The notes under the pieces are model-generated. The model did no database searches. It saw only the letters and a program-made list of their open reading frames with translations, and was not told where the DNA came from. DNA of 63,016 nt, counting the filler. It is 14 parts of 14 records of this genome, joined end to end, with 100 filler letters (N's around TTAATTAATTAA, not from the genome) between each part and the next. Parts side by side here need not be neighbours in the genome. Positions count along the whole stretch, not along the records: positions 22,551 to 25,743 come from SRR7504441_109982; 13 more parts are not named here. The stretch is one strand, 5' to 3'. Positions 14,315-62,735 of the stretch are shown here, one piece after another; position 1 is the first letter of the stretch; each line of letters begins with the position of its first letter. Made by a program: the position numbers and the translations under genes.

Positions 14315-15508
14315 TCACTCAAATGTGACGACCGCCTGTACATTGTCGCAGCCCTTGTCCACGCAACGGTGCATGTGTGTGGCGCCAACACCATACTGGA
14401 TAGCAAAGCTGTGATTGGGCAGCTGGACCACGGATGAGTACGTTGTGGCTGCGGATCGGTCATCCAGGCTTACTGCCAGTTCCCAAGAGCGCCCAGCGTC
14501 GGTGGACGAGAATAAACTCATGTTGACCCGCTGGTATTCATTGCTAGGATTGGTGAACACAAGCATGGAACCCGTTTCAAAGCTGTCAGTCGTCATTGAA
14601 CCAAACACAATAGGATCTATCAACGTCTCCGCCAGGTACAGCGGCGAGGACCAGGAGGCCCCAGCGTCGTTGGACCAGCTGATGCCACGGTGGACGGAAT
14701 GGGACCTGCTGCCTATGTAATTTCTAGAATTCATTACGAGAGTGCCATTGGCAAGCTCGGCCAGGCTGCACTCGTTAGTGGTGGCAGTGTCCAGCGAGCC
14801 CCCGATCTGCCACGACTCACCCCCGTCGTCAGAATAGATGACGTGTGAGAAAGAGTGGGCCTGAACAGCATCGTTTATCCAGGTCCCGTTCTGGTGGTCG
14901 CAGCAAACCAGCAGCCGCCCGTTCCTGCCACCCGCCCCTTGGTGCTCCAGCTGTACACCGCTGAAGGTGGTGGCATACCAGCCCCAGGCCCGCGGATCCG
15001 GAATCAGCCCCGGGGGCTTGACAGTCGCGGTAATGTCCTTGGCTTGGCTCCAGCTTTGCCCGTTATCATCGGAGAAAGACAGGAGCACGTCCGTGTTGTT
15101 GCGGCACATGAGCACAATCACACGCCCTGTGTTCCGGTCGAGTACCGCCGCCTGGTTCCCGATCACCACCTGGTGCGTCTTATTGCTCTCGGAGTGCACC
15201 AGCACCGCCGGCAGCCACGATCTGCCGTTATCGTCCGACCGCTTGACCAGGATATCGTGCCGGCCGCTGTCATCCTCGACGGATCCGGACGGGCCGGCCT
15301 TGCGGGCCTCGCTGAGGCTGAGCAGCGAGCCATTGGAAGTGAGCAGGAGCTGAGGCGCCCCGTATATGTCGTACTGAAGCCCGGCCGCTCTCTCTCCGAA
15401 CCGCCACACCGTTGAAAATCCCTCAACCCGCGCCGTCCGGGCGCCGCGGGTGATGCGGCTGAGCAGGGCGACCACAAGCAAGCTGGCCAAGCTCGCGCGT
15501 CCTGTCAT
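14315..15508 (-). CDS. Secreted BNR/Asp-box sialidase-fold (GH33-like) glycoside hydrolase
   Basis: Signal peptide; five Asp boxes (SDDNGRSW, SDDNGQSW, SDDGGESW, SNDAGASW, STDAGRSW); EAR, NEC, MNSR and YSS sialidase-type motifs. Confidence 0.85.
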   Translation of the reverse strand: MTGRASLASLLVVALLSRITRGARTARVEGFSTVWRFGERAAGLQYDIYGAPQLLLTSNGSLLSLSEARKAGPSGSVEDDSGRHDILVKRSDDNGRSWLPAVLVHSESNKTHQVVIGNQAAVLDRNTGRVIVLMCRNNTDVLLSFSDDNGQSWSQAKDITATVKPPGLIPDPRAWGWYATTFSGVQLEHQGAGGRNGRLLVCCDHQNGTWINDAVQAHSFSHVIYSDDGGESWQIGGSLDTATTNECSLAELANGTLVMNSRNYIGSRSHSVHRGISWSNDAGASWSSPLYLAETLIDPIVFGSMTTDSFETGSMLVFTNPSNEYQRVNMSLFSSTDAGRSWELAVSLDDRSAATTYSSVVQLPNHSFAIQYGVGATHMHRCVDKGCDNVQAVVTFE

Positions 15509-15749
15509 CAGTGACCTGCCCGCCCGGCGCGGCTTTGGAGGCTTTGGAGTCTTGGCGCGCGGAGGGGTCTTGCGAAGCTGCTTGGCGGGAGGGCGGATAC
15601 GATTCCGTTAAGGGTTTAGCCAACGAACGCGTTCACCAANNNNNNNNNNNNNNNNNNNNNNNNNNNNNNNNNNNNNNNNNNNNTTAATTAATTAANNNNN
15701 NNNNNNNNNNNNNNNNNNNNNNNNNNNNNNNNNNNNNNNGCTCCCACTG

Positions 15750-17249
15750 ATGAGCCTGGCGCTAGTGGATCACAGCTTGCTGCCACCGTATCGGCACGGG
15801 CTGCCCACCCGACCGCGGCTGCTGCTCACCGACTTTGGCGGCGTCCCCGATGGCCAGACCAACAACCAGCAAGCCTTCCGGCGCGCGCTGGCCCACTGTG
15901 ACTCGCTACCGGCCGGATGCGCCCTCGAACTGCCTGCCGCGCCGCCCAACACACCCACTGTGTACCGCACCAGCGCCATCAATTTAACCTCCAGGCTGGA
16001 CCTCATAATCCCGCCCAACGTCACCCTGCGAGCCACAGAGACGGACCCCGACAACTGGGGGGCGGCCTGGCCGACACTCGAGCACAGCAGCGCGCCCAGC
16101 CCGTGCGCAGGCACGCCCGGCAACTGCGGGTGCGGCCCGGCGAAGCAAGGCTGGCTGCGGGGATACAATGTGAGCCAGCTGTCGGTGGGTGGGGGCGGGA
16201 CGATCCACGGCGGCGGGAGGTACTGGTGGTGCGTGCGATCCAACTGGCAGCACGGCCACGCCAGGTGGCAGCCTGCGATGCAGCGGCACGGCTGCGCGAC
16301 CACCAAGGCACTGCCCAATGTGAGCCGGGCGGGCCAGCTGCTCGCTACCTGCCCGCCTCGGATGGTGCACATTGTCGAGTCGCACGATGTCAGATTGTAC
16401 GACCTCAACGTTCGCTGGGCCGGCTATTGGACGGTGCACTTCCAGTTCTCGGATCAAGTGCTCGTGGAAGGTGTGCACATCTGGAACCCGAGCAATACGA
16501 CCTTCAATGGCCCCAATGGTGATGGGATAGATGTTGACTCATCGACTAACGTCTTGGTACGAGATAGCATCGTCGACGCTGCAGACGACGCGTTGTGTAT
16601 CAAGTCTGGGGCCGACTGGTTGGGCAGGCAGGTGGGTAGGCCCACCGAGAATGTGCTGTTTACCAACATCGAAGTACGTAACGGGCACGGATTAACCCTG
16701 GGCTCCGACTGTTCGGGGGGTGCGAGGAATATAACCTGGCGGCACATCTACCTGAACGGCCGCGGGCCCACCTGCACGATAGATGGTGTTAATACGTGTG
16801 GGAACGGGCCGGGCAGGGGGGTTGGGCCAGGGGGGCCTCACTGGAAGACAGGCCGAGGGCGGGGTGGGACGTGGGAGGATGTAATGTGGGATGATATATA
16901 CGGAGACACAACCATGAATGCGATCGCCTTCGAGGGGGGCAATTACATTGCAGCACCGCCCACCAACATGAGTGCGACGCCCAAGCTGAGAAATATTACC
17001 GTCCAGAATCTCAAGCTCACAAATGTTAACGGAGCATATCAAGGGATCAGCACGCTACAGGAGTCGCCTATTGAAGGCCTGTTCCTGCGCAACGTGAGTT
17101 TTACGATGGCCAAGGAGCACCGAGCTGCGTGGACTTGCGTGGCAGATTGCACAGGGCCTAAGCCGGGGGAAGGTTGCATCAATCGTGTCTTTGCGAGTGG
17201 TACTCTTCAAGATGTCTCACCACCGCTCCCTAAAGAGTGCCAGTACTGA
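15750..17249 (+). CDS. GH28 polygalacturonase-like beta-helix glycoside hydrolase (possibly 5'-partial)
   Basis: DFGGVPDGQTNNQQAF start, PNGDGIDVDSS, DDALCIKSG, GHGLTLGS, KTGRGRGG. Confidence 0.88.
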   Translation: MSLALVDHSLLPPYRHGLPTRPRLLLTDFGGVPDGQTNNQQAFRRALAHCDSLPAGCALELPAAPPNTPTVYRTSAINLTSRLDLIIPPNVTLRATETDPDNWGAAWPTLEHSSAPSPCAGTPGNCGCGPAKQGWLRGYNVSQLSVGGGGTIHGGGRYWWCVRSNWQHGHARWQPAMQRHGCATTKALPNVSRAGQLLATCPPRMVHIVESHDVRLYDLNVRWAGYWTVHFQFSDQVLVEGVHIWNPSNTTFNGPNGDGIDVDSSTNVLVRDSIVDAADDALCIKSGADWLGRQVGRPTENVLFTNIEVRNGHGLTLGSDCSGGARNITWRHIYLNGRGPTCTIDGVNTCGNGPGRGVGPGGPHWKTGRGRGGTWEDVMWDDIYGDTTMNAIAFEGGNYIAAPPTNMSATPKLRNITVQNLKLTNVNGAYQGISTLQESPIEGLFLRNVSFTMAKEHRAAWTCVADCTGPKPGEGCINRVFASGTLQDVSPPLPKECQY

Positions 17250-17397: not shown

Positions 17398-19029
17398 ATG
17401 AGCAGTGGCAGCTCGCCCGACGGTCGACAGTCGACCCCGCGCCAGCCAAAAACGTGCGTCCTCATGCCTCCGAGCCGCACTGAAGCTGGGTGGATCAGGG
17501 CGCGGGACAGCGGGCAGTGGTTCGCGAAAACCCTGACGCTCCAGCGGCTGCGGACGCTCTCGGCAGCTCAGGCGGGTGGGGGCTGGGGTCAGGGCGGAGC
17601 GGGGGCAGGCGGAGGTGCTCAAGGAGCTCAAGTTCGGGCAGGTGTCCTGGGTGCTCCAGGGGCTGCTGTTGGTCTGGCTCTACTCGCTGCTGCTCCGATA
17701 CTGGGCCGACCAGTGGCGGGCCCAGCAAGCCGAATCGGACCCGTTCGCCCAGTCCTGGCTCTCGTACCCAGTGGGCTGGACCGTGCTCTACCTCGGGCTG
17801 GTCCGGTCGGTCAGCCGGCACATGGAGACCCGAGCCCCGTTCGAGTCACGGGTGTACGAGGCGATGCTGGTGTACAACCTGTACCAGATCTGCCTCAACA
17901 TGTGGTGCTTTGGGGCCTTCCTGCTCGAGCACCGCCGGCTGGGGATGAGTGTGTGGGGGAACGCTCACGACAAGTCGCCAGCTGGGTGGAGGATAGGGTT
18001 TCTGATCTGGGTGCACTACAACAACAAGTACGTTGACATGCTCGACACGGTGTTCATCCTGATCCGGAAGAAGTACAACCAGATGACCTTCCTGCACTAC
18101 TTCCAAAGGCTGGTGCTCATTTGGTCCTGGTTCTTGGTCACCCGGCTCGGGTGCGGCGGCGACTCGTACTTTGGGGCCATGCTGCACTCGGGCGTCTCCG
18201 TGATCACATACTCTTACTACCTGTTTGCCCAGCTCGACTTGCCGCTGCCCCGGGGCTGGAAGTCGGCCGTGGTCCGGCTGCACATGCTTCAGTTTGCAGT
18301 CTGCGCCGCGCACTCGCTGTTTGTGTTATGGCACGCCAACATGCCTCGCCCGCTCGCGCTCATACAGCTGATCACGATGGCCTGGATGCTCCTCCTCTTT
18401 ATGAACTTTGACGCCGCCGACAAGGAGCCGGCAATTCGGCCGGACCAGTCGGGCCGCCGGCTCACGCTCTCTTTCGACTCGTCTGGCTGGCTCTACTTGT
18501 ACCACTTTGGGGTGCCTGACGCCAGGCCGCTGTGGCTTTATCGGGCTTGTCAGGTGGCTCAGTTTGTAGAGGAATGCCTGGTCCCGCATCAGGACCCGAG
18601 CCTGGCCTACTCCGGCTCGTCCGGCGGAGCGCTTGCGGCCACAGCGCTCGCTGCCCGAGTGCCAATCAAGTCGCTGGTCGAGATGATCGTAGGCTGCCGC
18701 GAGATTTGCAAGTTTAATCCGTTCATGATGCTCCCGTCGGCCGAGCGGGTGCTCCAGGCCCAGGTGCCTGATGACGGGCACACTGTGGCCACCGGCAAGC
18801 TGCGGGTGCTCAACACTCGGATCCTGCTCAAGCCGCCGTTCGTGACCGGGCAGGTGGTCAGCTCGTTCGACTCTCGGGCCGAGCTGATCCGGGCGCTGCG
18901 GGCCTCGTGCCACATCCCGCTGATCGGCGGGCTGCTCCCCTACAAGACCCGGCACGGCTGGATGTACGACGGGATGTTCTGGAGCAGCGCGCTGCTCATC
19001 CCGTGGCGCACGTTCAGGCACTAACCCTA
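17398..19029 (+). CDS. ELO/GNS1-SUR4 elongase-like membrane domain fused to a patatin-like (PNPLA-type) lipase domain; 3'-partial
   Basis: KYVDMLDTVFILIRKK..QMTFLH (ELO), then SFDSSGWLYLYHFGV, SGSSGG, ALRASCHIP and YDG (patatin) in one frame. Introns: 17572-17608 (GC-AG) and 18512-18553 (GT-AG). Confidence 0.8.
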
Positions 19030-19590: not shown

Positions 19591-22387
19591 TCACACAAAA
19601 GTCCTACTATACTTTTTGATCTCGTGCATGATACTTGGCAACGAGACAATCTCTTTTGAGAATGCATTGGGACCAAATATCGATTTGACAATATCAAGAA
19701 ATCGTGTGTAATACAGAAGCAACTGGGTGAGCACCTGATTCAACTGAGCACAGCTGAGCTTAGCAAGGGCTCACATGCTTTAAGATGTCCATTCCATTCT
19801 TGAAGTTGGAGAAATACTTCATGACAGCCCCATTTACCTTATTTCAAACCATCAGGGCCAGTGCTCTGATCATAAGAACCTTGTCTATCGCACCCTGCCA
19901 ATTCTTGGAAAATTCTGCAAGGCATTCATGGTCAGGTCCGATTCCCAAGTGACAGCAGAGTACCATCAAGCAAGTCCACAACAAAATCCTGCTTGTATGG
20001 CAAGTCAGCTTCACTGGTCTGCCCAGCCTGCCCATCGATTGAGCGGAGGCATGCTGGCAGGTGCCTGCACAAGAGGTTCAACCTCCTTGACGTATCCAAT
20101 CAGCTTGCTAAAGTACGTTTGCAGCTCATCTTCCACAAACGCGGCGGTGGCTGTGGACAGCAGCTCCTCCAATCTGTCCGTCTAATCAGACCGCCAGTGG
20201 TCGCTTTGTCACTTTGTTGTGTCGTCGCAGGTCACGTTTCTCTCCTTCAGTACAGAGAGCACCAGGTCGTAGTTGTTGATCAGGAAGATGTGCCGCTGTT
20301 TGCTTGCTGCCAGCCCTTGTGACATGCTCACTAGCCGTGCTTCCATCGCCTCGAGGAAGTTACGCATGTTGTGCATGAGCATCGTGTTGTCGACGCCTTG
20401 ATTGAGCGAATGGATCGACGCCGCCAGCTCCGCATACTTTCGCGCAATGAAATGCGGGTGCGAGTCGCTTATTTTGGGCCGGTCTCGTGGATTGGTCACT
20501 GAAACTAAGTTGGCGTCAAACACCCTTTTGAAACGAGGCCATAGGCTGAGGTTCACTCGGTCGAAAGTGGCGTCCAGCACCTGCCCACCCACACTGTACA
20601 AGGCAAAAGAGCATAGGCTGTCACAGGGACTCTGCGGCGGGACATAATAAGCTGGTGGTCCCGAGTCAGTCGGATCATAAGGAGCAGCCCGACAGCGTCA
20701 TGACAGTCCACTAGGTGAGTCTCGACAGCCTCCATGAAGAAACCTAAAGCCCAGCCACCAAACCTCAGGTCAGGCAGGGCAGCAATGGCTGCCTATGGTC
20801 TTGGCAAAGATTTGATGGAAGATTGAATCCATCCGGCCAAAAAATTGGTGGGTGAAGAGGTACTCGGTGGTAGCAGACTCACACAACAGGTGCAGCATTG
20901 ACCGAAACAATGCTTCAAAAGGGAATTTCTCCTTCTTTTCAGCAGCAATGTGCGGAATTATTGAATCAGACGAGACCTAAGTAAGTCCGTGACGCGTGCC
21001 GAGCAGGGCATGCACGGACCTCTTCAAGAACTTTGCCCCGGTCCCCTAGAGAGAACACAGAGGTGCGATTAGTCATGCTCTTGTTCCCCGCCATCGACGC
21101 AAACAGCGAGCCTCGGCTGCTATCCGAGACCCCGACGAGGTCGTTCTTTGTGGCCACCTGGCCGTCACTGGCTCAGAACTTACCAGATTTTAGCGTCGCG
21201 CCTCGTATTCAAGCTTGAGCAGCGACCCAGCGTATACCTTGAACTTGCTATGATAGTAGCGACTCATCGTGTCCACATACGAAGCCCGCACCTACTTGTG
21301 GTCAGCCACCCAAAGTCGAGGTCAGCGCTTGCCTCCACCGAGATCTCTGGCGCATGCGCCGCCAGGAAAGTGTTGAAATACTTATACTTGAGTAGCACAT
21401 TCTGCTGCAGGATCTGAATGTTTGTCCGCTTATTCTTGAGCTGTTCTACCTGCGATCCTGTCATCGCCATACCGGCTACAGCACGCGCCTTCTGCATCAG
21501 GAAATCGCGGATCCGTGCAGCCGCCTTGGCCCTCAGCTTCTCGAGCTCTGGCTCCACGTCCTGGAAGGCCAATGTCTGTCGGGCACGATCGTCCTGTGCC
21601 TGCTCAGTCGACGGCTGCTAGTTGATCCTGACCATTAGGCAACTCATCTTTTTACTTAGCGCCACAATAAACTCGAGATATGCATCGTTCACCTGCCGCT
21701 CCAGGCTCAGTCCGGCCAATGCTGAGCTGGCACCTCTGCCTCACAGACGTTGTTGACCAGATCTGGCGGCAGTGCGACTGAATCAATAAACTGCCAGCGG
21801 CCCTTCACATCCCCGTCAGCAGCCCAGGCAACACCTGCCGCAGCTTGGCCTCCACAGACTTCCGATTCCGCAGCTTCAGTTTCATCGAAAGCGATTCTTC
21901 CTGCGCAGCAGCGGGTGAGCCCAGTAAAGCTGGCCCTGCCCGCCTGTAGGTGTCTAATCTCGGAGGAAATGTTGCCCAGACTGGTCTGAAAGCTGGTTAG
22001 CATCTGCTCCATGTTTCCCAGCACCTATCGCCCCCAGCTCTCCCCCCTCGCCGCTCCGGTGCACCTCGTCGCACTCAGCGATCTCCTGGTGCAAAGTTTC
22101 CAGATGTGACGACTCCTTCAGGTAGTCCTCCACCTGCCCGAGCCTTCCCTCGCGCCAGCCAGCCGGTCACACCGAGGCGGTCTCGATCTCGCGCATCTCC
22201 GCCTCCACTTGCTTGGCGCTCTCTCGGATACCCGCCGCCTCCGTGAGCACCTGCCCGGCTGGGTGAGAGCCCTAGAGGGGGCCGCCGGGCCAGCCTGTGC
22301 GATAACGGGGTCGTCGGCGAGCTGCGAGAGCTCCTCGTCTAGCCCATCCAACCCGTCCAGCGGGAAGTTCTCCACCAGCGCGGCCAT
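19591..22387 (-). CDS. VPS52: GARP/EARP complex subunit Vps52, multi-exon
   Basis: Spliced protein includes VEDYLKESSHLETLHQEIAECDEVLGNMEQMLTSFQTSLGNISSEIRHLQ, DVEPELEKLRAKA, PHFIARKYAE, IFLINNYDLVL and QLLLYYTRF, ending EIKKYSRTFV*. More than 10 introns of about 39-44 nt. Confidence 0.93.
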
Positions 22388-22760
22388 AGCCTACCGGTAC
22401 ATGGCACCTCTCTCTTTCACAGTATTGTCGTTCTCGCTGAACTTCGACCCNNNNNNNNNNNNNNNNNNNNNNNNNNNNNNNNNNNNNNNNNNNNTTAATT
22501 AATTAANNNNNNNNNNNNNNNNNNNNNNNNNNNNNNNNNNNNNNNNNNNNGGATCGCGTTTCCGGTCTCAAAAATGAGATGAAACAATTTTTCAACACCA
22601 AAAATTCGATATTTTGTGTTTTTTCAGTGTTTTTCTCACTTTTTGTGTTGTCGTGGCTATAGGTTGGGCCAAGTCGGCTGACTCCCTGTTGTGAATCTAG
22701 TAACGATTCCATCCAGGCAAACGCAGATGCCTTGTGCTCCCATGTGCGTACACTCACAAC

Positions 22761-25305
22761 TCAGAAGAGTTCCGGAAAGCAATGCTTGAGCTCCCATGCT
22801 GCGGCCGACTCCGAGTCACTGCCATGGACCGCATTCCTGATCCCATCGGTCCCAAACCTGTCAGACCGTCAGCCGGTTTGTTCCTTGCTCACTCGGACCT
22901 GGTTCGAAGCCCCACACCCGGCGCTGAGAAGCGGAGCTCCCAGCCGGACGGTCCGATTACCACCCGCCACTGCTCAATCGCGTCGGGACCTTCGAGAGCC
23001 ATGATCATTGATTCACCCGAAGCATTGAACTCGACCATTTCGCCATAGTACTCCCTGAATCATGCTAAGCTCGCCTGATCAATTGGACCACACCTGTTCA
23101 CATGTTCGTAATAGAACTCCGCAGTCTCAGCCTCGGTTCTCTTGCCAGTCCATGAGGACTTGACTTGCAGCCCTGCCTCTGCAATCTGTTCGAGAATTGC
23201 CTCAGTGTGCCCCGCGGAGACTGCGTCCGGTTTGATGATCCCTAGTGTGCACTGCCAAACTGCCGGCGCCCGGAAAGCAATCCGCCTCTCCAAGATTGCC
23301 TGCATCAACCAGGCTCGCCGTCGGCCATAGCGTGCGCGGCTGCCTGATACTTCGTGCGGCTACCATGCACAGCGTTCTGCAGACGGTTGGTCCCGTACCG
23401 CTGCTTAAGCTCTGAGGAGAGCGGTCGCCACAGCCGGAGTGCGTCCTCGGCTTCAACGTCCAGGAGCACCATAGGCCCTGACGAGATGAACTCGACTATG
23501 CTCAAAAAGTAGGGCTGCTCGCTGCTCGGGGCATAGAAGCTGTCCGCCTGCTCCCAACTGAAGTGCTCAGTCTTAAGCTGGAGGATCGAAAACCCTGCCC
23601 CGGCTGACCAAAGGGCGAGAGAGGATCAAACCTGCTTGGCGGATCCTGTCGAGGATTTCGCCGACCAGATCCTCCCGGCTAGCCACGTCGGGCTTGATCA
23701 GCAGCACCATCCGTTTCCGAGTCATCGAGTCATCGCCCAGGTCGTCTCCTGGTCACTAGAGTGAGCGCGAATATTGGCAGGCCTGGCACCGACAGACAAC
23801 GGGCCCTTCACTTGCTGTGGCTCAAAGCCATGCCCAAGAACTGCCCGTGCGGCCAGCGGGGGCATGCGGGCACTGGGCCCAGCGGCGATGGCGCTCTCCG
23901 TCCTGCGCGCTATCCTCGCAAGCCACTCGACTGCCTGGACCGGGAAACGGCCTGGAGTGTGTGAGGGCCATCAACTGAGGATGTGGGCCACCTTTGGTCA
24001 TCTCATCCGAGAGCATCACTGCAGTGCAACCGTCAATGATGGCGTTGGCCACGTCATCGACGTCCGCTCGGGTGGGGCTGGGTGTTTGGACAGTGCCCAT
24101 CAGCATCTGGGTGGCGCAGATGCACATCTTGCCAGCTGCCACACACTTAGCTGTCAGGAGCTTCTGCACGGCTGGCATGTTCTCGAGCCCGATCTCGACC
24201 CCCATGTCCCCCCGCGCGATCATCAGCCCGTGACTCAGCCGCAAAATCTCATCGATGTTGGCAACTGCCTGCGGCTTCTCTATTTTTGGTATGATCTTGG
24301 GCTGGAGGGCCTGAGGCACGCCCAGCCGCTCCATCTCACCAATCAGGTCCTCGATATCGCTCGCCGACTTGACAAACGACATTGCAATGTAATCCACCTG
24401 CCCCAAGCTGGCCCTGGCCGGGCACTGGCGCCACCTTCTGGGTCAAGAAGAACTCCAGGTCAAGCTTGTCCTTCGCAGTCAGGGCCGAGAAGTTCAGCTC
24501 GGCAGCCGGCACGTTCACGCCTTGCCTGGATTGGAGCAGCCCGCCCCTCTCCACTGTGCACAGCACCGTATCCTCCCCCAGCCGCCGGGCCACCTTCAGC
24601 CGGATAAAGCCGTCATGCAACAGCACCTCAGCCCCGGGCTGAAGCGACCGCACCAGCTCGCTCTGTTCGAGAGTCCTCTCCAGTGTCACCCTTCTGCTTG
24701 TGGTGCAGTCCGTCGGTCCGTCTCGTAAGGCTAGTTCCAGCTCGTCCCCGCCGCGCAGCCGCACCCCGCCCCGCTCGGCCTCGGTGGTCCGTATCTTGGG
24801 CCCCTGCAGGTCCCCCAGCACAGCCACCGGCCGGTCCACCTCAGCCAACATCGCACGGATCCGCGGAAAGACCTCCTCAAACTCGCCAGGCCGCCGGTGT
24901 GATCCGTTCACCCGGATAATGTCCAGCCCGGCGTCCACGCAGCCGCGCATGTACTCCGGCCTCCACGAGAGACCTCCGATCGACCCTACCAACTGCGTCC
25001 GTCGGCCGGCGATCGACCCGCCAGCGCTAGGCCCGAGCTGGCCGGCCGCATCGCGGAGCATCTCAACGGCGGTCTGCTGGGCCTTGAGCGACAACTCGGC
25101 TGTGACGAACTCGGCCCGCACTCGGGCGAGATCCAGGTCCAGCGGAGTCGGGCTCTGCGCCAGCCGGTCGGCCACCAGCGCAGCCCGGGCCGCGCGAAGG
25201 TCGAGGCCGTTGGCGGCGGCCAGCGCGGCCGCGTCAGCCTGTGGGGGATGGTTGGCGCCAGGAGGCCGCGGGCACCTCGAATTCGTCGTAGTACGAGCCG
25301 CCCAT
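22761..25305 (-). CDS. Pyruvate kinase (barrel plus B domain, no C domain) fused to two nucleoside-diphosphate kinase domains; 742 aa predicted
   Basis: PK motifs DLQGPKIRT, KIEKPQAV, GLMIARGDMGVE, ATQML, DVANAIIDG. NDK motifs LLIKPD..NAVHGS and IIKPDA..NAVHGSDS. Eight introns (25239-25275, 24398-24434, 23952-23991, 23749-23789, 23595-23631, 23300-23343, 23055-23093, 22858-22898) give one 2229-nt ORF. Confidence 0.8.
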
Positions 25306-25951
25306 CCCCGATGCGCACCTGACAGGTCCCGATGTGCTCGAGATTCAGCGTTTAAAGGAACTCCGTGAGTGGACCAACGGATGAAAAAGCAGTCCTACAA
25401 ATTCGATCGCAAATGCCCCTGGATTGGCTCAGCCCCATCTGCTCCGCTGGTGCGCCCGAGGTGGGCACTGCCGTGCGCCGTGAGACCGTGCGAGGCTTCC
25501 TCAACAACTACCCCGACGACGGGTACGTTTCTGACGTCAGCTTGGCCTCCGACCTGGATGAACTGGACGAGCAGGATGGGGATGGTGAGACCCGCTATGC
25601 CCGCCCGGCGTGCTGAACGGGCCGGCGCAGGTGAGAGCAGCTCGCTGCCTACCACGTGCTGCCCGTGTGGTGGAGCGCGAGAGGGTGCCGGGCGCAAGCG
25701 CAAGCACTTCGCCACCGGCGAGAAGACCGCGGCCCAGGTAAAGNNNNNNNNNNNNNNNNNNNNNNNNNNNNNNNNNNNNNNNNNNNNTTAATTAATTAAN
25801 NNNNNNNNNNNNNNNNNNNNNNNNNNNNNNNNNNNNNNNNNNNCACGAACGAGCTAGTCTTTATTAACTCTAACATGTACCTAAATTAAACGCGCTCTTC
25901 CCAAAATTGTTGTACACGAGTGTTCAGAAATGGATGAAATCCATGTGAACG

Positions 25952-59982: not shown

Positions 59983-62735
59983 ATGGAGGATGTCAGGGGC
60001 TCGGGTAAGAAGAAGTCGGGCGGGTTCCAGTCGTTCGGGCTGGCCTACCCGGTGTACTCGGGGATCATGCGGATCGGGTACCAGCTCCCGACCCCGATCC
60101 AGCGCCGGGCCATCCCGGCAATCATCAAGGGGCACGACACGGTGGTCATGGCCCGCACCGGTGCCCCGCCCGGCCCGTTAGGGCATCGAGCGGTTTGGGG
60201 CAGGCTCGGGCAAGACGGCCGCCTTTTTGATCCCGATGCTGCACAGGCTGGCTGAGCACTCGACAAAGGTCGGTGTGCGCGGGCTGTTGCTCGCCCCCAC
60301 ACGAGGTGACCCGCACAGCTCGCCGCCAGCCGAGCCCCGGGCAGAACTAGCGATGCAGACGCTCGGCTTCGCCAAGAAGCTCGGGAGGGCCACCGGGCTG
60401 CGGTACTGCCTGCTGGTGGGCGGCGACTCGATGGAGGAGCAATACGGCCAGCTAGCGGCCAACCCGGACGTGATTGTGGCCACCCCGGGCCGGCTGGTGC
60501 ACCACATGGAGGAGGTCAAGCTCGAACTGCGCACAGTGGTCCGACTGCCGCCACTGCCGCCTGGCTCAATGCAGGGCAGGTCTATTTCTGTGTAGATGAG
60601 GCAGATCGGCTGTTCGAGATGGGTGTGCAGGACCAGCTGCACCAGGTAGTGCAGGCGCTCCCGCCCTCGCGCCAGTCTGTGCTCTGCTCGGCCACGCTAC
60701 CGCGTGCCTTGCTCGACTTTGCTAGAGGAGGGGGCGACGCAGGTGAGGCCTGCTGATGTGCACAGCTCACCTATGGTCGTAGGGATTTCGGCGCTCAAGG
60801 AGCCGGTGGAGTACATCCGGCTGGACGCAGAAACCAAGATCTCCGAGAACCTGAGAATGGGCTTTTTCCAGCTGCGGCCGGAGGAGAAGCTGGGAGCGCT
60901 GCTGTACATGCTCAGGCATCTAGTCAAGCCCGGAGAGCAGACAATTGTGTTCGTGGCCACCAGGCACCAGGTCGAGCTCATCGCCGAGCTGCTCCCCCGG
61001 TACAGCCCTCCGTTTGCTCGGCCAAGCCGGTGGCAGCTGCGGGTTTGAGTTGTCTGTTGTGTTTGGAGAAATGGACCAGGCAGACTCGCCCGTCCCTCCG
61101 CTGCTCAGCGGCCGGGGCAGGCGGCGCGCACCAGTCACCTGGGTCGGTTCCGAGCCAAGAAGACCAGCATCCTGGTGGTAACGGATGTGGCGGCTCGCGG
61201 AATCGACATCCCGTTGCTCTCAAACGTGATCAACTTTGACTTCCCAGCCAAGCCCAAGCTATTCGTGCACCGGGTGGGCCGGACTGCCCGGCAGGGCCAG
61301 CAGGGCATCGCGTACAGCCTGCTGGCTAACGACGAACTCGGGTATATGCTTGACCTTCTGCTCTTCCTGGGGCGCAAGGCTCACAACGTATGCCCCGATC
61401 CGGCCGATGCAGCCAGCGGTGTCTGGTATGGGGGTCTGCCTAGGCGTCAGCTAGAGGAGGAGTGCGACACCGCCCGTAGCATTATCTCCCAGGCGCATGA
61501 TCTGCAAGCGCTCCAGAGGTCGGCAGCCAATGCGTTCAAAAGGTACCAAAACACACGCGCGTCTGCCTCCAAGGCGTCGGCTGGGCGGAGCAAGCAGCTG
61601 CCAGAGCTGCCGGCGGTGCATCCCTGGCTGCTCGACCAAGTCGGGGCGCAGGACGAGCAGTGGCTGGCCATGATGGGCGCGGTGCGCGGGTACCAGCCCA
61701 AGAGTACCATCCTCGAGATGAAGCAGGACTCGGACGGGTTTGCGAGCATGAAGCGCAAGCGCATGACAGACCAGGCCGCGGTCACCAACAAGCGGCGAGC
61801 AAGCGAACAGCCAGCGAAAGAGCCGGTGCTGGACCAGGAGGAGGAACAGCAGGACCCTGAGCTACGCGAGCACAAGTGGAAGGACAAGCAGTACTTTATT
61901 GAGTACGAGCCGGCAGACAGGGATCCGGCAGCAGACTTCGGGTTCGAGATCGGTGACGGCCTGTGTGATTCTGTCGGCTGAGTGGGGCCAGGTGGGTCGC
62001 ACGCGCAAATGGAGGCGAGCGTGTTGGATCTGGGCGGCGACACAGAGTCCGGGATGCAGCGGGCCAAACAGGTGCGCAAGTGGGATGCCAAGAAGAAGCG
62101 GTGTGGCGCCTGGGCCAGAGCGGTCGGTTTAGGTTGAGTGCAGGTACGTGATGATGGAGCTGGACAACGAGGGCCGGGCCAAGCGGCAGAAGCTGAACGA
62201 GGCCGGACAAGCGGTCACCTCCAAGGCGGCCAAGGCCAAGGGCCGCTCGTACAAGGACTGGCAGAAGAAGATGCGGCTCTCCATCCCCAAGGCCGGTGAA
62301 GAGGAGTCCGCCAGGACCGCTGCAGCCGCCAAATCCAAAGACGAATGGCGTTGGGTGGACGGGCGTCGGATCAGGATGGGTGGGAAGGGCCAGCAGGACG
62401 GGCCGGGTGCCAAAGACGAGCTGCAAAACCCCCAACAGATCGCCAAGCTGCGACGGGAACAGCTGAAGAACAAGAACAGGAATTCCAAGAACCACTCGGG
62501 CGGCAAGGCGGCGCAGTTTGGGCGCGGAGGCAAGGGTGGTAAGGGCAGCAAAGGCAAGGGACGCCGGGGCGGAAGCACCCACGGGGGGGCGATGAGAGAC
62601 AGAATGCCCGGGCCTGGGATGGGCAAGAAAGGCTCCAACAACAAGAAGAGCAAGACGTCGCTGCCAGCCTCCAAGCTGACCAAAGGCAAGGCGCCCAAGA
62701 GGTCCGCAAGCCAGAAAGGCGCATCGAAGAAGTAG
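59983..62735 (+). CDS. DDX54: DEAD-box RNA helicase DDX54/Dbp10
   Basis: [64 protein letters not shown] and WDAKKKRYV. Introns: 60161-60203, 60306-60344, 60539-60579, 60743-60782, 61000-61036, 61080-61120 (GC-AG), 61953-61991, 62101-62143. Confidence 0.93.

Follow-up and report, generated by a model that had tools for sequence, protein, structure and literature searches.

A single spliced gene of an uncultured marine protist probably encodes a 742-residue protein with three enzyme domains, namely a pyruvate kinase (PK) barrel with its B domain and two nucleoside diphosphate kinase (NDK) domains, NDK1 and NDK2. The domains lie in this order on one strand. The window, i.e. the whole stretch of 63,016 nucleotides that was analysed, consists of 14 short contigs separated by N44-TTAATTAATTAA-N44 spacers. 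The gene is found on the minus strand of a 3193-nt metagenome-type contig at positions 22551-25743 and occupies most of it, the only clear intergenic region of the contig being approximately 100 nt located 5' of the ATG at 25305. Removal of eight introns of 37-44 nt, seven with GT-AG and one with GC-AG borders, gives a 2229-nt open reading frame (ORF) from this ATG to the stop codon at 22761-22763. This reproduces exactly the gene model of the original prediction, which had read the locus as a PK-NDK-NDK fusion; the join between PK and NDK, via intron 4, is supported indirectly. For the organism, the thraustochytrid code 23 was ruled out, as TTA is used 77 times.

Exon 1 (25276-25305) carries the first ATG of the ORF and has ten codons. 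It is followed by intron 1 (25239-25275, 37 nt, GT-AG) and by exon 2 (24435-25238), whose frame has no upstream ATG and has a pronounced codon periodicity that sets in at about 25238 (GC1/2/3 = 0.85/0.53/0.86). Exon 1 and the 78 codons at the start of exon 2 form an 88-residue N-terminal extension without a Pfam match at E-values up to 10. The remainder of exon 2, encoding the B domain together with the first half of the barrel, matches the PK profile (Pfam: PF00224) from position 2 to 188 with 109.5 bits. Across intron 2 (24398-24434, 37 nt, GT-AG) the profile continues from 188 to 191 into exon 3 (23992-24397), which encodes the second half of the barrel with the catalytic motifs (152.2 bits, profile 191-319; best PDB match 2e28, E-value 1.4e-32). 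Both scores are far above the cut-off of 30 bits, and the two exons cover positions 2-319 of the 328 in the profile. Intron 3 (23952-23991, 40 nt, GT-AG) is in phase 1, and the alignment to a full-length PK hidden Markov model (HMM) of 60 PKs is continuous across it into the last barrel helix on exon 4 (23790-23951). PK homology extends to about 23881 and is followed by an Ala/Pro/Gly-rich linker to the NDK part of roughly 45 residues, which is predicted to be flexible and has no PDB or Pfam match.

Residues 89-437 of the gene model match positions 5-341 of the 474 in the full-length PK HMM, and HMM positions 342-474 have no counterpart. The PK C-terminal domain (Pfam: PF02887), an alpha/beta domain with the effector site and the tetramer interface, has no match on any exon, so that Pfam and the full-length HMM agree with the earlier observation that it is missing. 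In contrast, all 120 listed PK relatives possess this domain, and the gene additionally differs from bacterial K+-independent PKs in its spliceosomal introns. To our knowledge, there is neither a PK without the C-terminal domain nor any replacement for this domain. The motifs N-x-S-H, GP-K/E-IR, K-I-E, ARGD-x-G, ATQML and PTRA, which we take to be catalytic and metal-binding, align with the consensus of the 60 PKs and with 2e28 and 1a3w. The barrel appears to be of the bacterial K+-independent type because L113, Q114 and K117 (rabbit-muscle numbering) are read in the PK motif. These residues are described as the K+-independent signature in the accessible text of PMC8835810, and PKs of the Lys117 cluster are K+-independent, whereas eukaryotic PKs carry Glu117 (PMC8835810, PMC4374775). 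The bacterial PKs of this cluster share barrel, B domain and L113/Q114/K117 with the gene and are, among the matches listed, 38-41% identical to exon 2 and 48-54% identical to exon 3.

NDK1 starts on exon 5 (23632-23748), which contains seven linker codons, the ATG 23723-23725 and the IKPD motif and gives a weak NDK match (profile 2-26). The NDK profile continues from 26 to 29 across intron 5 (23595-23631, 37 nt, GT-AG) into exon 6 (23344-23594), the core of NDK1 with the catalytic His (Pfam: PF00334, 54.4 bits with a cut-off of 27). Intron 6 (23300-23343, 44 nt, GC-AG) lies between NDK1 and NDK2. The C-terminal helix of NDK1, a short linker and the start of NDK2 are on exon 7 (23094-23299; PF00334, 35.2 bits, profile 2-52), for which TXNDC6/NME9 is the best PDB match. 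NDK2 is completed, after intron 7 (23055-23093, 39 nt, GT-AG), by exon 8 (22899-23054, profile 56-90) and, after intron 8 (22858-22898, 41 nt, GT-AG), by exon 9 (22761-22857, profile 104-132) with the catalytic His and the stop codon. The 3' untranslated region (22625-22760) comprises at least 136 nt, with a contig of run X1 spanning 22625-22768.

Compared as whole domains with an HMM of 28 single-domain NDKs, NDK1 scores 118.1 bits and NDK2 129.4 bits. NAVHGS is found at the aligned position of the catalytic His in both, as expected from the phospho-His motif named in the original prediction. In NDK1 there is a 10-residue gap in the Kpn-loop region and Lys replaces the Arg of the consensus RkkfG; because of this deletion and replacement, NDK1 may be only weakly active. 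Similarly short Kpn loops are also found in P0159 and P0168. NDK2 has the entire Kpn-loop region; of its nucleotide-binding residues, Thr is replaced by Ser and Arg is conserved, and the domain looks complete.

The mini-introns in this organism are real, because introns 7 and 8 are missing in RNA-type contigs and introns of the same size occur in other genes. Our transcript check covered contigs from 4 of the 24 listed runs, none of which spans 23571-24662. Introns 7 and 8 are removed at the RNA level: both are precisely missing, with their GT..AG ends, from RNA-type contigs of marine runs, intron 7 from a contig of run X2 and intron 8 from a contig of run X1. Intron 1 is kept in one 150-nt contig of run X3, an RNA library in which DNA is possibly present. 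On other contigs of the genome, introns of 37-44 nt are also found in a Vps52 gene, where GC is the only usable donor at two junctions, and in a DEAD-box helicase gene, where the intron 60161-60203 interrupts the TGSGKT motif between TG and SGKT. The GT/GC...AG borders and the narrow size class of this genome are common to all eight introns of the gene, and absence from RNA-type contigs was observed for introns 7 and 8. A genome-wide intron size histogram obtained by ORF bridging gave no signal above the scrambled-signal control, because the GC-rich DNA has long open frames throughout.

Splicing of intron 6 lets the NDK1 alignment reach HMM position 139 with 118.1 bits, compared to 132 and 116.6 bits when it is retained, so homology lends modest support to the NDK1-NDK2 join through this GC-AG intron. 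One X2 contig has its break points at both borders of intron 6, with the interior missing, in an 'opposite strands' joint for which we found no inverted repeat that accounts for it. We regard this contig as a chimeric record and as a weak hint for intron 6.

The contig itself could be an artefact, either a chimera between two unrelated loci or a locus with a decaying pseudogene, as it is a short metagenome-type contig and none of the examined contigs bridges both halves. However, the two halves are alike in intron size and form, strand and GC3 bias, the 742-codon ORF is intact with catalytic motifs in all three domains, and pieces at least 99% identical to the gene were found in four runs of three studies. 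We therefore give an artefact hardly any credence.

The PK-NDK join depends on intron 4 (23749-23789, 41 nt, GTG...CAG), the candidate for the fusing splice. It contains GCTCAC and has the typical size of this genome, both as described previously. The donor at 23789 is the only GT among seven frame-compatible candidates, and the acceptor is at 23749 or 23746. Among comparable 37-nt windows, 4.2% contain a frame-correct GTG...CAG segment of 38, 41 or 44 nt by chance, and 27% contain a GT...AG of any kind. With intron 4 retained, the PK frame stops at the TGA 23722-23724, 22 codons past the donor, and this stop overlaps the ATG 23723-23725 (ATGA), an overlap that the original prediction had pointed out and that is present in the sequence.

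The overlap also fits two adjacent genes, a PK ending at this TGA and an NDK-NDK protein beginning at this ATG, either with its own promoter in the 3' part of the PK or by reinitiation on a message that is not spliced. Stand-alone NDKs begin at about the equivalent point, the Met being four residues before the start of the Pfam NDK domain, and it is conserved in the environmental homologue P0161. Within the 41-nt segment a CCAAT/AATATT stretch lies about 50 nt 5' of the ATG, so that a small internal promoter is possible; the 27% of windows with a frame-fixing GT...AG of suitable size and the lack of a PK+NDK protein among the relatives and loci searched also fit two genes. However, in an unspliced message the PK stop codon coincides in part with the start codon of the NDK frame, so that neither a 3' end nor a promoter can be accommodated, compared to about 100 nt in the other intergenic region of the contig. 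Likewise, the segment has the typical size and the GTG...CAG ends of an intron, which chance produces in 4.2% of windows, and two genes would need a PK ending without its C-terminal domain, for which no precedent is known to us. P0161, which is 55% identical to exon 6, matches exon 5 at 16 of the 21 positions that surround the Met, and of the six positions upstream of the Met in this single homologue three are identical and one is similar. In the gene, the stretch upstream of the NDK Met lacks an earlier ATG and is closed by two stops within intron 4. It is hence translatable only after splicing to an upstream exon, which is the only way in which the residues conserved in P0161 can be reached here. 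Two adjacent genes are thus unlikely, and we infer that intron 4 is spliced and all domains are in one chain, supported indirectly by the uniqueness and typical form of the intron, the missing intergenic space and one homologue.

Further comparisons around the junction were made. The codon-position GC of the linker is uninformative because of its Ala/Pro/Gly-rich composition. The out-of-frame upstream part of P0147, read for a hidden exon 5, has no compatible IKPD (best 16 of 39 residues, with a background of 13-15), and P0147 is uninformative on the PK-NDK junction. The clusters of P0161 and P0147, which are encoded on contigs of 1616 nt and 1951 nt, respectively, have single members and contain no longer forms. 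A search for homologues of near length to the 82-residue unspliced ORF at 23725-23970 gave four candidates, none of which scored.

Splicing of intron 4 might also be facultative, with PK alone as the main product and the fused enzyme as the minor one, or the reverse. The clean ending of the retained form shortly past the donor fits with this, and the intron 1 kept in one RNA-library contig hints at unspliced molecules. The NDK exons, however, are spliced in RNA-type contigs and yet would be untranslated in a PK-only message, which makes facultative splicing quite improbable compared to the fused protein.

A check of domain architectures for PK + NDK + NDK, as proposed earlier, found none among the 120 PK and 150 NDK relatives: PK and NDK occur together in none of the 120 PK relatives of at least 470 residues, and none of the 150 nearest NDK relatives contains a PK. 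No NDK was found within 4 kb of a bacterial PK in 80 loci, among the matches listed, and the literature search found no paper describing a PK+NDK fusion. Among the matches listed, metagenome loci matching exon 3 contain only bacterial PKs (48-54% identity). Comparing exon 6 with longer proteins gave 37 candidates, none of which scored, an alignment search of genome and viral contigs gave no confirmed match, and the ESM Atlas returned generic NDK clusters at 0.87, under the 0.9 level, for exon 6. So far, the members of this family come from one uncultured marine protist and two short environmental fragments.

Multidomain NDK proteins are the nearest NDK relatives among 1.84 billion representatives. 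Of 20 of these relatives that we scanned, three have an adenylate kinase, five a thioredoxin and one a guanylate kinase domain, and fusions of an NDK with other phosphotransfer domains are frequent in this group. Thioredoxin-NDK proteins (NME8/NME9), adenylate kinase-NDK and NDK-guanylate kinase all chain an NDK to another nucleotide-handling domain, as does the gene described here, but the partner here is a pyruvate kinase.

NME7 is an NDK of the axoneme and the gamma-tubulin complex whose two NDK domains come after a DM10 domain. The tandem NDK layout is shared with the gene, and the background given in the original prediction on tandem NDK domains in axonemal NME7-like proteins holds, as NME7 is found among the PDB matches, with the chains 8snb, 8g2z, 6u42 and 7ung among the best solved matches for both domains. 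P0159 (367 residues), with a short-loop first NDK domain, also has a tandem layout that looks NME7-like. The gene differs from NME7 in having no DM10, its N-terminal extension being without Pfam match, and in having a PK barrel in front. Since bacterial NDKs match with E-values close to those of NME7 (the best match of NDK1 being 3zto), orthology with NME7 is not implied.

In the proposed mechanism the PK reaction on PEP and ADP would yield ATP, whose phosphate the tethered NDK would hand to GDP or other NDPs, so that in net terms PEP + NDP would give pyruvate + NTP, with ADP and ATP cycled locally. The tandem NDK would replace the oligomerising role of the missing PK C-terminal domain. Substrate channelling in such a PEP-to-NTP generator is a reasonable inference, and a flagellar location or role is possible. 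According to the accessible text of PMC3414718, NDK-PK complexes, which the original prediction had mentioned for some bacteria, pair both activities for specific NTPs in Pseudomonas aeruginosa and Mycobacterium smegmatis. These complexes consist of separate proteins, whereas here a covalent link is predicted, in a eukaryote. In cilia, enolase and pyruvate kinase are reported at the C1b/C1f region of the central apparatus, where PK regenerates ATP locally (PMC8175508, accessible text), so that a link between PK and axoneme-type NDK domains would be plausible. Ciliary PKs, however, are ordinary stand-alone enzymes, whereas the protein predicted here is multidomain.

When the inter-domain introns are retained, the upstream stop overlaps an in-frame ATG in both cases (ATGA at 23722-23725 and TGATG inside intron 6). 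One possible origin, which we regard as very doubtful, is a bacterial pyk-ndk-ndk operon that was acquired by transfer and in which the short overlaps between cistrons became spliceosomal mini-introns; the bacterial Lys117 type of the PK would fit with this. Splicing would then fuse three cistrons into a PEP-driven NTP generator, and retention could release separate proteins.

If the fusion is true, it would be the first PK found in which the regulatory C-terminal domain is swapped for another enzyme, and the first NDK tethered to its own ATP-making step. The fusion protein would form a compact PEP-to-NTP module without regulation, probably for GTP, with relevance to how nucleotides are regenerated locally. 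Cilia are an example, as PK, enolase, adenylate kinase and proteins of the NDK family already meet there. The protein would also be a ready design for in vitro NTP regeneration. Finally, the gene indicates that a PK barrel of the bacterial, apparently K+-independent type can occur in an intron-rich eukaryotic gene.

The PK/NDK gene is encoded on the minus strand of a contig of 3193 nt (22551-25743, GC 62%). Rebuilding it from the sequence reproduced exactly the original prediction of eight introns and a 2229-nt open reading frame (ORF) of 742 codons, with the ATG at 25305 and the stop at 22761-22763, and all the sequence features listed there are present. The introns measure 37, 37, 40, 41, 37, 44, 39 and 41 nt; seven are GT-AG and one is GC-AG, and CAG forms the 3' end of all eight. 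Within 25306-25743, about 100 nt separate the ATG from a divergent plus-strand ORF (frames 25356-25613 and 25369-25743), which runs past the contig end. This spacing of about 100 nt carries a TTTAAA element at 25351-25356 and is likely the shared promoter of the two.

In Pfam, exons 2 and 3 match the pyruvate kinase (PK) barrel (profile 2-319 of 328), whereas exon 6 (29-118) and exons 7, 8 and 9 (2-52, 56-90 and 104-132) match nucleoside-diphosphate kinase (NDK), as exon 5 does weakly (2-26). The PK C-terminal domain is missing, as had been claimed: Pfam finds none on the gene, and model residues 89-437 correspond to positions 5-341 of 474 in a hidden Markov model (HMM) built from 60 full-length PKs out of 120 relatives, and its final 133 positions, which make up the C domain, have no counterpart. 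Without this domain, PK would lack its effector site and one of its tetramer interfaces. The catalytic motifs of the barrel are kept. The nearest PK relatives are bacterial or metagenomic and are 29-41% identical over exon 2, and exon 3 is 48-54% identical to bacterial PKs from metagenome loci, among the matches listed. The monovalent-cation site, L113/Q114/K117/T120 in rabbit-muscle numbering, is of the K+-independent type, which fits these relatives. Lys117 with L113/Q114 is described as a mark of K+-independent bacterial PKs, whereas eukaryotic PKs have Glu117 (PMC8835810 and PMC4374775). The 88-residue N-terminal extension had no match in Pfam, and the linker none in Pfam or the PDB.

Both NDK domains read NAVHGS at the aligned position, confirming that the catalytic His is kept, and with an HMM of 28 single-domain NDKs the first (NDK1) scores 118.1 bits and the second (NDK2) 129.4 bits. 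NDK2 is full length with its key residues aligned. NDK1 is missing 10 residues of the Kpn-loop region, has Lys at a consensus Arg position, and resembles the NDK relatives P0159 and P0168 in its short loop. The best solved matches of the domains are axonemal NME7, NME5 and TXNDC6/NME9 as well as bacterial NDKs, with similar E-values; group I NDKs gave lower scores.

The window consists of 14 separate contigs of 3.1-8.9 kb each (1-63016, spacers N44-TTAATTAATTAA-N44) and is not a single chromosome stretch, so features that appear to span a spacer are not true neighbours. Pieces of the PK/NDK contig occur at at least 99% identity in four runs that belong to three studies with the label seawater or marine metagenome. 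Genes of eukaryotic type are present on other contigs (Vps52, DEAD-box helicase, ELO, LBP/BPI and ankyrin). Together these observations identify the source organism as an uncultured marine protist. A mitochondrial contig (49723-55102, 30% GC) contains atp6, rpl2-rps19-rps3, rps8-rpl6, a possible rps14 and five tRNAs (Val, Lys, Met, Gln and Asn), the protein-gene names being readings of ORF translations and not search results. Its code is standard, with no TGA inside ORFs and TTA used 77 times, which rejects the thraustochytrid mitochondrial code. Elsewhere, an uninterrupted 495-codon frame (17537-19021, plus strand) joins an ELO fatty-acid elongase domain (residues 76-291) to a patatin-like phospholipase (312-479) and is possibly another enzyme fusion of the same organism. 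On contigs adjoining in the window, a BNR/sialidase-like ORF (14318-15607, minus strand) and a GH28 polygalacturonase-like ORF (15741-17246, plus strand) hint at a heterotrophic lifestyle with polysaccharide degradation.

The mini-introns are real in this organism. Introns 22858-22898 and 23055-23093 are exactly skipped by contigs from the marine runs X1 and X2, respectively, each with GT..AG ends on the strand of the gene. Both runs are labelled RNA-Seq; that they are RNA is presumed, and the best sign of it is a gap of intron length bounded by splice ends. Introns 2, 3 and 5 are required, since the profile alignments are unbroken across their junctions. The exon-2 frame is evidently coding (GC1/2/3 of 0.85/0.53/0.86) but lacks any upstream ATG, and so calls for intron 1. 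Intron 1 is retained in one 150-nt contig of an oligo-dT RNA library, which extends into the upstream TTTAAA element and may be DNA. In the Vps52 and DEAD-box helicase genes, Pfam profile coordinates likewise continue across frame changes where the only available joins are of 37-44 nt. Examples from the helicase are 60161-60203 (43 nt, splitting the TGSGKT motif after TG) and 60536-60579 (44 nt, just before VDEAD). Two Vps52 joins on the minus strand (20744-20792 and 21901-21943), placed by profile continuity, offer only GC donors. A GC-AG intron 6 is thus unremarkable here, and such introns seem frequent in the genome.

Support for intron 6 (23300-23343, minus strand) is modest. When it is spliced, the NDK1 alignment reaches HMM position 139 at 118.1 bits and includes the C-terminal helix, compared with position 132 and 116.6 bits when it is retained. 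Furthermore, the break points of one chimeric X2 contig fall at the two borders of the intron, whose interior is absent from it. This contig (23302-23432) links exon 7 with exon 6 in inverted orientation, with 8 letters unplaced; no inverted repeat was found to explain the join, which thus probably reflects a cDNA chimera or a misassembly. With intron 6 retained, NDK1 stops at a TGA overlapping an in-frame NDK2 ATG (TGATG). Branch-like motifs containing TGA (TTGAT, CTGAC) occur in five of the eight introns, so this overlap is probably a by-product of splice signals.

The splice that would join PK to NDK is intron 4 (23749-23789). Seven GT/GC...AG segments of 25-120 nt join the two frames without a stop. 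The sole GT donor among them is 23789, with its acceptor at 23749 (41 nt) or 23746 (44 nt); the others use GC donors and span 56-119 nt, outside the intron size class of this genome. On the nuclear contigs, the chance of a frame-correct GT...AG (38, 41 or 44 nt) per 37-nt acceptor window is 27%, and that of the GTG...CAG form, as in intron 4 and most neighbouring introns, is 4.2% in the same windows. When 1.84 billion representatives were searched with exon 6, two environmental relatives turned up, P0147 (79% identical) and P0161 (55%). P0161 reaches the NDK domain start, where 16 of 21 residues match, and in this single homologue three of the six positions before the Met are identical and one is similar. 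In the PK/NDK gene, the corresponding stretch contains no ATG and is closed upstream by a TAG and a TGA inside intron 4; its translation would therefore require splicing to an exon further upstream, for which PK is the sole candidate.

Two separate genes, PK and NDK-NDK, would be consistent with an NDK Met (23723-23725) that is kept in P0161 and lies four residues before the Pfam domain start, presumably about where stand-alone NDKs begin, and with CCAAT/AATATT within the 41-nt segment. Unspliced, the two coding regions would overlap by four bases, and the one clear intergenic region of the contig is about 100 nt; we consider separate genes unlikely. As predicted, retention of intron 4 stops the PK frame after 22 codons, at a TGA (23722-23724) overlapping that ATG. 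An 8-nt unit, GATGACTC, is found in tandem twice at 23719-23734 (minus strand), and its second copy gives rise to the ATG of the NDK frame as well as the TGA of the PK frame, which overlap as ATGA. That intron 4 is mainly retained appears quite improbable, and an artefact is very hard to credit. The argument for splicing is indirect, because no run contig examined covers 23749-23789. Judged from sequence, PK-NDK-NDK is likely one spliced fusion protein. The gene model and mini-introns of the original prediction thus stand, its PK-to-NDK join is supported indirectly, by frame uniqueness, intron form, the lack of an intergenic gap and P0161, and its interpretation as a whole is partly supported.

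A search for this architecture elsewhere gave no precedent among the relatives and loci covered. None of the 120 PK relatives of at least 470 residues among the matches listed contains NDK, and all 120 have the PK C domain. No PK part was found in the 150 nearest NDK relatives, nor NDK within 4 kb of bacterial PK at 80 loci among the matches listed. A Pfam scan of 20 NDK relatives detected thioredoxin in five, adenylate kinase in three, guanylate kinase plus choline kinase in one and PK in none. These word-based searches detect close relatives only, and intron-split eukaryotic genes are under-represented in the protein sets searched. A full-text literature search covering few subscription journals returned no paper that describes PK fused to NDK domains. 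The architecture is rare, with one genome and two environmental fragments, and the gene is a new addition to a known kind of protein, the multidomain NDKs fused to phosphotransfer partners.

PK forms ATP from PEP and ADP, and NDK transfers the gamma-phosphate to any NDP via a phospho-histidine. One chain with both activities would regenerate NTPs from PEP, with the adenine nucleotide cycled locally. Such a chain may escape the usual allosteric control, and the NDK pair may provide oligomer contacts. The earlier statement that PK-NDK complexes exist in some bacteria agrees with a passage of PMC3414718, which cites P. aeruginosa and M. smegmatis as having non-covalent complexes that steer NTP synthesis. 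In Tetrahymena cilia, PK and enolase are central-apparatus-associated enzymes, according to a section of PMC8175508. The NDK domains of this gene resemble axonemal NDKs, and the PK-NDK-NDK protein may possibly have a ciliary role.
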